Source: Promethearchaeota archaeon (GTDB taxonomy: Archaea > Asgardarchaeota > Lokiarchaeia > Sigyniarchaeales > SOKP01). Taken from it: 64,000 nt of DNA. Positions 55,301-57,793 of this stretch are shown piece after piece; within the stretch, counting starts at the first letter, position 1; each line of letters opens with the position of its first letter. The DNA lies in NCBI GenBank assembly GCA_048939995.1, contig JBHLOY010000013.1, positions 13,333-77,332 on the forward strand, in the 5' to 3' direction. Below the pieces are notes generated by a model. The model made no database searches. It was given only the letters and a program-made list of their open reading frames with translations, and had not been told where the DNA came from. A program made the translations under genes and the position numbers.

Positions 55301-57793
55301 ATGAAAAGTAGCATGAAAATTAACGTAATATTTATTATTGGAACAATTACATTATTATTAACTTCATCATTTGGAATTATAATCTCTGTAAAGGCAGAGG
55401 AATATGTAAATGGAATTGACGTCTCTCATTACCAAGGTTCTATTAATTGGAATCAAGTCTATAACGCAGGTTATCGTTTTGCGTTTTGTAAAGCAAGCCA
55501 AGGTATTAGCTTTAAAGATTCTACATTTAGTACAAATATGAATCAAGGTGCAAATGCGGGCTTATATTTAGGACCATATCATTATGCTACTCCAAATAGT
55601 TATGCTGCAACGGCAGAAGCTTCACATTTTGTTAGTGTAATACAACCATACATGGTTGAAGGGTATTTACGACCAGTTATTGATCTGGAAGAGGGCTCCA
55701 ATTTAGGTAAAACAGCCCTTACGAATTGGGTAATTGATTTCATGACCTATGTAGAAGAACATACAGGAATTGAACCTATTATTTATTGTAATAGTTACTA
55801 TGCTTCAAGTTTGTTAGATTCTCGGGTTACTCAGTATGATCTCTGGATAGCCCATTGGAATGCTGTATCCCCAAATACAGGTGTGTGGGATACTTGGTCT
55901 TTCTGGCAATATAGAGTAAGTAGTGCTGGATATGTACCTGGGATTTCAGGACAATGTGATTTAGATTATTTTAATGGCAATTTGAACAACTTATACCAAA
56001 ACTTTGTCATTAAAAGTACTCCAGATGATAAAATTGAGTTTAATGGACATGAATACCAATTATTTCTTGATAGTCAAACTTGGGTAAATGCTAAAGCTAA
56101 TTGTGAAGCTAAGAGGGGATATCTGGTAACAATTAATAGTAATGAGGAAAATAATTTTGTAAATAATTTAATCGGTGCCAATAGTATTTGGATTGGATTG
56201 TCTGATGAACTAGATGAAGGTGTTTGGCAGTGGGTCACAGGTGAATCCGTTTCTTTTACTAATTGGCGTTCAGGTGAACCTAATGACTATGGTTCTGGAG
56301 AGGATTATGCTGAGATGTATACTGATGGTACATGGAATGATATTGGACCTCCAGCGTTTCCTAGTATAACTCGATATTATGTTTGTGAATGGGCAAAAGA
56401 AGATGATAAAATTGAATATAATGGGCATGAATATAAATTAATAACCGAAGCAAAGAGTTGGTCAGACGCTAAAATTGATTGTGAAATTCAGGGGGGTCAT
56501 TTAGTCACTATTACTAGTCAAGGTGAAAACGATTTTGTTAAAAATTTAGCCGATTCTAACAGAATATGGCTAGGACTCACTGATGAAGCAAATGAGGGTA
56601 ACTGGAAGTGGATTACTGATGAAGCTCTTTCATATACTAACTGGTATCCCGGTGAACCAAACGATTATAGCATTGGGGAAGATTATGTAGAAATGTATAC
56701 TGATGGAAGATGGAATGATATAGGACCTCCAGCATTTCCTAGTATTACTCGACATTATGTATGTGAATGGGAGAAGAGCTATAGCTATAATATATTTTCA
56801 ACAGAGGGAGCTTTAGGGTATGCAGAATATTGGTGGAATAAGAGAAATTCACATTATGCTGATTATTCTAATGTAGGTGGTGATTGTGCTAATTTTGTGA
56901 GCCAATGCCTTATTGCAGGAGGTTTAACGTTATGGAAAGGTTCTAATGGTAATGGAGGGGGATTAGATAGCCGTGGGTGCCTTCCTTCATGTGATAATCT
57001 CCACTCACATCTTAGTAATTTTCAAAGTATTTCATATCAAAGATGCGTTAAATCAGGATCTTGGGATAACGAGCTCCCATCATGGGTATCTCCCGGAACT
57101 GTATTAATATACGGAACTGCGGGTGGTGATGAATGGCGCCATACAGTCGTCGTGACTGGTGGAAATGGAGATGCTGCAGCAGTCTCAGGTCACACCTCAG
57201 ATGAATATGGATGGTCATGGACTGCTTTTTCCGCTTTCAGTGTTGTCCATGTTTATAAACCAAATGGATATACCTCCACTTATTGCGTGGTTGAGATAAC
57301 TGCTTCTAACCTAAATGTACGAACAGGACCTAGTACCAGTTATAATATTGTAACTACAGTCCAAAGTGGAGAAAAATATGTGAGTCTTGAAAGTCATAAT
57401 GGCTGGTATCGGATTTGGTTAGATGATCGGAGTGCGTGGATTTCTGGAAACTATTTAACTACACATGATATCTCAAAATTTAACTGTTATAAAGTAACCG
57501 CAAATACTTTGAATGTGCGATATGGAGCTAGCACAAACTATGGGATTGTAGGAAGGTGCAATTATGGACAATGTTTTGTTCAATATGGAACTAATGGTGA
57601 TTGGTGCCAGATATATTACAGTAGTGGTACTTATTGGGTTCATTCTGATTATTTAGATTTAATGGAAGCCAAGAATATTATTAATTACTCAATACTTGAC
57701 TCTATGCCTCTCCAGATTTTCATAACATTCATTACCATTGGAATAATTGTGATTGGCAGTCTTTCATATTATCTAATCAAAAGAAGACGTTGA
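55301..57793 (+). CDS. Membrane-anchored peptidoglycan hydrolase: GH25 muramidase, 2 C-type lectin, Amidase_6, 2 SH3b
   Basis: Signal peptide; GIDVSHYQG/KASQG/YHY/IDLEE/WIAHW/FWQY/DLD; WIGL..EPND..WND twice; GGDCANFVSQCLIAGG; LNVRTGPS/LNVRYGAS; TM-KRRR. Confidence 0.9.
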   Translation: MKSSMKINVIFIIGTITLLLTSSFGIIISVKAEEYVNGIDVSHYQGSINWNQVYNAGYRFAFCKASQGISFKDSTFSTNMNQGANAGLYLGPYHYATPNSYAATAEASHFVSVIQPYMVEGYLRPVIDLEEGSNLGKTALTNWVIDFMTYVEEHTGIEPIIYCNSYYASSLLDSRVTQYDLWIAHWNAVSPNTGVWDTWSFWQYRVSSAGYVPGISGQCDLDYFNGNLNNLYQNFVIKSTPDDKIEFNGHEYQLFLDSQTWVNAKANCEAKRGYLVTINSNEENNFVNNLIGANSIWIGLSDELDEGVWQWVTGESVSFTNWRSGEPNDYGSGEDYAEMYTDGTWNDIGPPAFPSITRYYVCEWAKEDDKIEYNGHEYKLITEAKSWSDAKIDCEIQGGHLVTITSQGENDFVKNLADSNRIWLGLTDEANEGNWKWITDEALSYTNWYPGEPNDYSIGEDYVEMYTDGRWNDIGPPAFPSITRHYVCEWEKSYSYNIFSTEGALGYAEYWWNKRNSHYADYSNVGGDCANFVSQCLIAGGLTLWKGSNGNGGGLDSRGCLPSCDNLHSHLSNFQSISYQRCVKSGSWDNELPSWVSPGTVLIYGTAGGDEWRHTVVVTGGNGDAAAVSGHTSDEYGWSWTAFSAFSVVHVYKPNGYTSTYCVVEITASNLNVRTGPSTSYNIVTTVQSGEKYVSLESHNGWYRIWLDDRSAWISGNYLTTHDISKFNCYKVTANTLNVRYGASTNYGIVGRCNYGQCFVQYGTNGDWCQIYYSSGTYWVHSDYLDLMEAKNIINYSILDSMPLQIFITFITIGIIVIGSLSYYLIKRRR
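56024..56779 (+). repeat. Tandem duplicated C-type lectin domain (378-bp period)
   Basis: DDKIE(F/Y)NGHEY starts at 56024 and 56402. Confidence 0.85.

Follow-up and report, generated by a model that had tools for sequence, protein, structure and literature searches.

A predicted surface-anchored peptidoglycan hydrolase with paired C-type lectin domains in an Asgard archaeon

A 64,000-nucleotide stretch of a Promethearchaeota contig (hereafter the window, meaning the whole stretch analysed) raises the question of what use an archaeon would have for a surface protein that combines two putative wall-cutting enzymes with a pair of sugar-binding domains. The protein is encoded by a single unbroken open reading frame of 830 residues at positions 55301–57793 of the forward strand, in the order signal peptide, GH25, C-type lectin domain (CTLD), CTLD, Amidase_6, SH3b, SH3b and transmembrane (TM) helix. 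The first-pass annotation had listed a GH25 domain with intact D..DxE..D acids, two C-type lectin domains with EPN and WND motifs, an Amidase_6-type Cys domain, two SH3b domains and a signal peptide with a C-terminal TM, all of which are recovered here, and every domain scores far above its Pfam cut-off: GH25 (PF01183; E 4e-43 over residues 39–214, 148 bits against a cut-off of 27), Lectin_C twice (E 8e-40), Amidase_6 (PF12671; E 9e-19 over residues 501–643, 68.6 bits against 23.2) and SH3_3 twice (E 2e-20). The reading that we favour, and hold to be reasonably probable, is that of a Sec-exported peptidoglycan hydrolase, tethered by one C-terminal helix, that would capture and cut bacterial walls, with food as the likeliest benefit and some local killing, and that derives from a mobile archaeal lysozyme into which a lectin was inserted.

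The contig is of Asgard origin and is not chimeric, a point that the first-pass annotation had left to be confirmed. The neighbouring genes encode a Rab-like GTPase, an Arf-PAS protein and a roadblock protein (Pfam), and the cluster mates of these neighbours are named Promethearchaeota or Hodarchaeota; gene order is identical in a second, nearly identical assembly, and contigs from separate studies span the junctions on both sides of the hydrolase gene, from roadblock into GH25 and from SH3b into the gene that follows. The class is probably Lokiarchaeia, an assignment based on the neighbours and on GTDB kinship, the 16S rRNA not being assembled. Codon use of the hydrolase gene is typical of the genome (CAI at the 62nd and GC3 at the 73rd percentile). 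Mis-assembly or mis-binning of bacterial or viral DNA into an Asgard contig might be suspected from the 5.3% contamination of the bin, the tetranucleotide distance of the gene (97th percentile) and its being missing from 41 congeners. Against this, the second assembly, the bridging contigs and the ordinary codon use rule out a chimera or contamination, the closest homologs lie on Asgard contigs beside longin, roadblock or Rab genes, and viral contigs give only short partial matches and none of full length, on which ground a viral origin was also rejected. Such an artefact is largely refuted and extremely improbable. Metagenome runs that contain most of the gene come from sediment, mangrove and unlabelled samples in three studies, and no RNA data set was listed among those that contain it. 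A search of the genome, which is 98% complete, gave no penicillin-binding transpeptidase; the host's own wall is therefore an unlikely substrate.

The GH25 domain (residues 36–232; 55406–55996, forward strand) retains D40, D128, E130 and D220, which align with the active site of cellosyl (1JFX), and its model has a modified TIM-barrel fold (Z 27.6 and r.m.s.d. 2.2 Å over 203 residues against 1JFX). The predicted activity is cleavage of the β-1,4 MurNAc–GlcNAc backbone. The Amidase_6 domain (residues 499–655; 56795–57265, forward strand) is papain-like (CHAP/NlpC-P60 fold) and carries C529, H614 and H631, which are conserved across the family. Fold comparison gives Z-scores of 12.9 with the endolysin Lys2972, 10.8 with CwlO and 10.1 with Tae3, suggesting that this domain acts on the stem peptide or cross-link of peptidoglycan. 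It is quite unlikely that the two enzymes act on endospore cortex, chitin-like polymers or methanogen pseudomurein rather than on vegetative murein: to our knowledge, the characterised GH25 enzymes are muramidases, and we know of none that cleaves the β-1,3 backbone of pseudomurein. The nearest tested homolog, moreover, kills vegetative Bacillaceae (PMC4241558). These other substrates find some favour in the fusion of the Amidase_6-SH3b module to GH18 in other archaea, in the GH25 match of the spore-cortex enzyme SleM and in the sigE regulation of YhbB, one of the B. subtilis Amidase_6 proteins, which are uncharacterised (PMC10653849).

The two SH3b domains (residues 664–722, 57290–57466, and residues 730–787, 57488–57661, both forward strand) are supported by Pfam and structure comparison, the second with Z 12.0 to 9OVI. 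By hydropathy, hydrophobic stretches are confined to residues ∼3–31 and ∼798–827. The first, judged on hydropathy and the N-termini of homologs, is a predicted Sec signal peptide (residues 1–32; 55301–55396, forward strand) and ends in a cleavage-like V-K-A site that is kept in five homologs; the second would form a TM helix (residues ∼803–826; 57707–57790 with the KRRR that follows, forward strand), as hydropathy and homologs indicate. The Asgard members of the family retain both the signal and the C-terminal TM, and the Loki homologs the TM with its basic tail. From what is known of the family, the protein is thus predicted to be Sec-exported and C-terminally anchored. No PGF, PEF or IPGY sorting motif, NCBIfam match or stalk was found in the C-terminal tail, and a search of the 98%-complete genome gave no archaeosortase/exosortase (PF09721); sortase processing was rejected on these grounds. 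Since there is no stalk, the reach of the tethered hydrolase would be short. Against three homologs, dN/dS is 0.08–0.29 in all five modules and lowest in the amidase (0.08–0.15); every domain is under purifying selection, and the protein is therefore maintained. A scan for sigma-70 promoters and terminators, with models not suited to archaea, gave results at chance level.

The same features bear on whether the protein is instead shed from the membrane as a diffusible antibacterial for niche defence, like Woldo and Danwoldo of Halogranum, the lectins and SH3b domains serving only for targeting. Some GH25-lectin relatives are soluble and have no TM (P0007, P0009 and P0011), relatives of the Aciduliprofundum type carry a PEF sorting motif at their end, the standard muramic-acid catabolic genes were not found in the genome and the patchy distribution of the gene fits the arms-race turnover argued for such enzymes (PMC12352652). 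However, the lack of PF09721 in the genome and of a sorting motif before the TM, together with the retention of the TM and basic tail in the Loki homologs, makes shedding unlikely.

Lectin domain 1 spans residues 244–365 (56030–56395, forward strand) and lectin domain 2 residues 370–491 (56408–56773, forward strand), the latter being a tandem duplicate that lies 378 nucleotides downstream with 73–74% nucleotide identity. By Pfam and alignment both copies are complete in their motifs (EPN 326–328, E334 and WND 345–347 in domain 1; EPN 452 and WND 471 in domain 2), and domain 1 keeps the second Ca site (D302, E306, D329 and D335). The calcium loop aligns without gaps to rat MBP-A over its whole length, where we take the residue assignment of the MBP-A calcium sites as given. 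The model of domain 1 superimposes on human MBP (1HUP) with Z 18.8 and r.m.s.d. 1.7 Å over 119 residues; domain 2 is poorly modelled (pLDDT 44–74). The EPN, Glu and WND ligands predict Ca-dependent binding of Man or GlcNAc by the pair. EPN lectins require free equatorial 3-/4-OH groups, and MBL binds GlcNAc-teichoic acid (PMC11756514).

Of the two conserved disulfides of animal CRDs, only the outer pair is found in the lectins; in domain 1 this is C268–C362, and the inner pair is missing, with EDY in place of EDC, as it is likewise from most prokaryotic C-type lectin domains. Bacterial C-type lectin domains, too, usually carry EPN/WND, and they are often fused to CHAP, NlpC/P60 or Amidase_6. 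In a tree of 136 columns with weak deep branches, the lectins fall among Asgard lectins, mostly labelled Hodarchaeales, and away from the animal clade. The likeness to animal innate-immune lectins that had been drawn earlier therefore holds for the motifs and the calcium loop but not for kinship, and the link to animal innate immunity is one of analogy only. The domains would work like an EPN CRD but are prokaryotic-type CTLDs and not collectins. An origin from eukaryotes, or a position ancestral to eukaryotic CTLDs, was not supported, as the domains are patchy in Asgard archaea and stand apart from the animal clade in this short-alignment tree; with Lectin_C in 12 of 400 Asgard genomes, ten of them in one family, the distribution is not that of a eukaryotic signature protein. 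No report on the ligands of prokaryotic EPN lectin domains or on Asgard C-type lectins was found in a literature search that covered few subscription journals.

C-type lectin domains occur in ten of the 22 genomes of one Asgard family (f16, L087–L116; probably Hodarchaeales), mostly in proteins of 1,300–3,300 residues and as both EPN and QPD types. Elsewhere in the window (23593–38408), two tandem surface proteins of ∼2,400 residues have lectin-like N-termini, a shared stalk, a TM and a cytoplasmic domain. Presence of related Asgard lectins in non-enzymatic surface proteins, mostly in that one family (10/22 genomes), a lectin copy number that ranges from one to three, and the Hex/HexNAc content of Asgard N-glycans (PMC11284389) could point to a protein that is mainly an adhesin for glycans of partners, its own kind or particles, with enzymes that only trim or are vestigial. 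This is very unlikely, as both enzymes keep a complete catalytic set, dN/dS is lower in the amidase than in the other modules and the lectin is a late addition to an enzyme scaffold.

The gene is accessory, rare and patchy in Asgard archaea. Among the 400 Asgard genomes, many of them incomplete, GH25 was found in nine and Amidase_6 in five, and neither these nor Lectin_C were found in the 41 congeners, whose genomes are also often incomplete. The full lectin-bearing form occurs in two genomes and a third carries the start of the gene at a contig end; near-full-length homologs with one, two or three lectins are present in other Asgard MAGs. Members from Methanofastidiosia combine GH25 with three lectins but lack amidase, SH3b and TM; GH25-lectin fusions can therefore do without a tether. 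Per-domain phylogenies, proposed in the first-pass annotation, were run for GH25, lectin and amidase. EPN lectins (one to three) follow GH25 in a single clade of Asgard and Methanofastidiosia proteins (support 100/96), which sits inside a mostly archaeal radiation; three GH25s of uncultured bacteria fall among the archaeal ones, and a separate clade (95/93) holds those of phiBP and Paenibacillus and most of the other named bacterial ones. Given this separate clade, a direct Bacillota donor was rejected, and no donor was identified. The amidase falls in an archaeal group, all 16 GTDB matches that span the whole Amidase_6-SH3b-SH3b module are archaeal, and the module pairs with GH25 or GH18 in either order. 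In the simplest history, an Asgard-type lectin would have been inserted once into a mobile archaeal GH25-Amidase_6-SH3b lysozyme and then duplicated in tandem, and the gene has probably moved between sediment archaea.

Several related architectures were observed. Archaeal Amidase_6-SH3b-SH3b-GH18 proteins (L018:4381–7809, L026:5468–8818, L024:5869–9036 and L029:5860–8721), some with a C-terminal anchor, are hosted by Lokiarchaeia, Aciduliprofundum and others, and are possibly a sister family that degrades walls or spore cortex. A sister protein, P0008 (L164:2479–6048), has GH25 and two lectins with a different C-terminal half that comprises Y_Y_Y, a further domain, a permuted NlpC/P60-like domain (recognised by eye) and a TM; its middle domain gave only Atlas leads below 0.9, with a weak SLT/lysozyme-like flavour. 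Many close GH25 homologs (P0169–P0231), often apparently archaeal, are fused to NosD, PKD, dockerin, M23, CHAP or carboxypeptidase, and GH25 gives the impression of a module that has been shuffled widely among sediment archaea.

At the locus itself, the hydrolase gene is bracketed by a 182-nucleotide direct repeat with only two DNA copies in the genome. The left copy (54813–54994, forward strand) is the 3' tail of the upstream roadblock gene, and the right copy (58268–58449, forward strand) is a decayed roadblock tail with 74% identity and in-frame stops, an arrangement consistent with gain of the gene at a duplicated site. A congener with the same Arf-PAS, Rab and GNAT block has other genes at the hydrolase position. 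A segment of ∼260 nucleotides (57857–58115), non-coding or decayed and with no recognised ORF, is matched at 74–78% by sequence on contig C14 and by sequence that lies upstream of the Rab gene of congener G010. Homolog loci of the Loki family (L084, L016 and L165) also adjoin roadblock, longin or Rab genes, which are non-orthologous; given ∼59 Rab-like matches in the genome, this adjacency may be due to chance. Positions 58614–60146 encode a signal-anchored protein with two Ig (Big_7) domains and an exo/endo/phosphatase (EEP) domain. A feeding module composed of the hydrolase and this downstream Ig-EEP nuclease was considered and found no support, as the one congener of the 41 with a full-length EEP homolog lacks GH25, and no EEP gene adjoins the hydrolase at four lectin-GH25 homolog loci.

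In the favoured mechanism, the C-terminal helix would hold the hydrolase on the archaeal surface, the SH3b domains would bind the wall, GH25 would cut the MurNAc–GlcNAc backbone and the Cys-His domain the stem peptide or cross-link, and the EPN lectin pair would grip sugars with free equatorial 3-/4-OH groups. These positions, we reason, would be blocked inside a murein strand but open on teichoic-acid GlcNAc and on the new non-reducing GlcNAc ends produced by GH25, which points to a protein that catches Gram-positive cells or fragments and keeps hold of the cut ends. While cutting proceeds, the lectins would hold in place a Gram-positive-type cell or fragment that touches the surface, and an outer membrane would shield Gram-negative cells. 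The hydrolase probably holds and cuts bacterial walls at the surface of its own cell. The earlier picture of a tethered tool that grips and opens bacteria is upheld as regards predicted export, C-terminal anchoring, two intact wall-hydrolase domains and wall- and sugar-binding modules, and is reduced to analogy as regards the pattern recognition of animal immunity.

The likeliest benefit would be food (peptides, amino acids and cell contents) won from bacteria that adhere to the cell, whether live, dormant or dead, and local killing would come with the same action. Genes for GH20 and for amino-acid racemase-family proteins are present in the genome, of which GH20 is genus-wide (40 of 42 genomes) and not tied to the hydrolase gene. 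MurQ, NagA, NagZ-type GH3 and AnmK were not found above cut-off in the genome, nor was MurQ in five other GH25-bearing Asgard genomes. Catabolism of muramic acid by the standard route was therefore rejected as improbable, and the gain in food is more likely to be peptides and cell contents. A bolder version, in which some Lokiarchaeia prey on live bacteria by contact, the Asgard-derived, Ca-dependent lectin pair capturing Gram-positive cells and GlcNAc ends while the two tethered enzymes open the wall, is doubtful but conceivable. If true, it would represent a surface weapon that joins recognition to an effector and was assembled independently of animal immunity, and would offer a first molecular way into how Asgard archaea feed on bacteria.

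The role of peptidoglycan hydrolases in archaea, be it defence, predation or scavenging, has been stated to be open (PMC12352652), and the hydrolase bears on this question because a tethered enzyme cannot defend at a distance. Its domains lend themselves to individual expression and assay with no need for a host culture, and for the EPN lectin domains of prokaryotes the protein puts forward a definite hypothesis as to the ligand. The direct bearing on Asgard–bacteria interactions claimed for it extends to a few Asgard lineages but, the gene being rare and patchy, is neither general nor relevant to eukaryogenesis; an accessory gene with a probable history of movement among sediment archaea sheds little light on the Asgard ancestor of eukaryotes.

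Among known systems, the GH25 lysozyme of A. boonei (B5ID12/WP_008084055.1; Metcalf 2014, PMC4241558) has a GH25 domain that kills Bacillaceae, and its full gene is toxic in E. coli. S2 Table of Strock 2025 (PMC12352652) lists WP_008084055.1 as SH3_3+Amidase_6+GH25, a domain set (GH25, Amidase_6, SH3b) that the hydrolase shares, and the Lokiarchaeia SOKP01 protein DXJM01000513.1_2 as SH3_3+Amidase_6+Glyco_hydro_25; a Hodarchaeales SH3_3+GH25 protein is listed as well. The comparison with A. boonei was made through the 574-residue ortholog of Aciduliprofundum sp015520565, which has the same length as the A. boonei protein and the same PRT/Macro neighbours. Once residues ∼240–495 (the lectins) are removed, the hydrolase is colinear with it through GH25, Amidase_6 and two SH3b domains (54% identity in GH25, 34% in amidase-SH3b), with a hydrophobic N-terminus and tail in both. 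Both GH25s lie in the mostly archaeal radiation, where the branches joining them are poorly resolved. The hydrolase differs in its two EPN lectins after GH25, its plain TM rather than a PEF sorting tail, its Asgard host and its intact amidase Cys and His, which are Ser and Tyr in the ortholog; this loss suggests that the amidase is dispensable in the tested lineage. The ortholog is one of several Aciduliprofundaceae-type lysozymes (P0186 at L158:6001–7725, P0016, P0166, P0168 and P0184) that have lost the amidase Cys and, in some cases, the His. The hydrolase belongs to the architectural family of the A. boonei lysozyme and, judged by sequence, would work like it. The earlier description of an archaeal, anchored protein with two intact hydrolase domains stands, but its core of GH25+Amidase_6+SH3b is already known, being published for A. 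boonei and listed for Lokiarchaeia; it is the lectin addition for which no published description was found. No paper on a GH25–C-type lectin fusion appeared in the literature searched, in which few subscription journals were covered; the words 'lectin' and 'transmembrane' are missing from the main text of PMC12352652, and Lectin_C was not found in the accessible parts of its supplements.

With the archaeal hydrolases of Strock 2025 (PMC12352652) the protein shares catalytic and wall-binding domains, a patchy distribution and domain shuffling; the enzymes tested there, Woldo and Danwoldo, are secreted M23 peptidases and differ from it in this respect. Like animal collectins (rat MBP-A 1MSB, human MBL and SP-A/SP-D), it has the C-type lectin fold (Z 17.7–18.8) and complete Ca-site residues, including the EPND-x-GSGED loop and WND, but it has no inner disulfide, collagen, coiled-coil trimer or complement link. 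The CHAP-Lectin_C-dockerin and Amidase_6-Lectin_C-choline-binding proteins of Ruminococcus and Clostridia likewise join an EPN..EDY..WND lectin to a wall hydrolase. The partners seen for such bacterial lectins are CHAP, NlpC/P60, M23 and Amidase_6, with no GH25 among them, and these fusions are made by organisms that have murein of their own, from lectin lineages separate from those of Asgard archaea.
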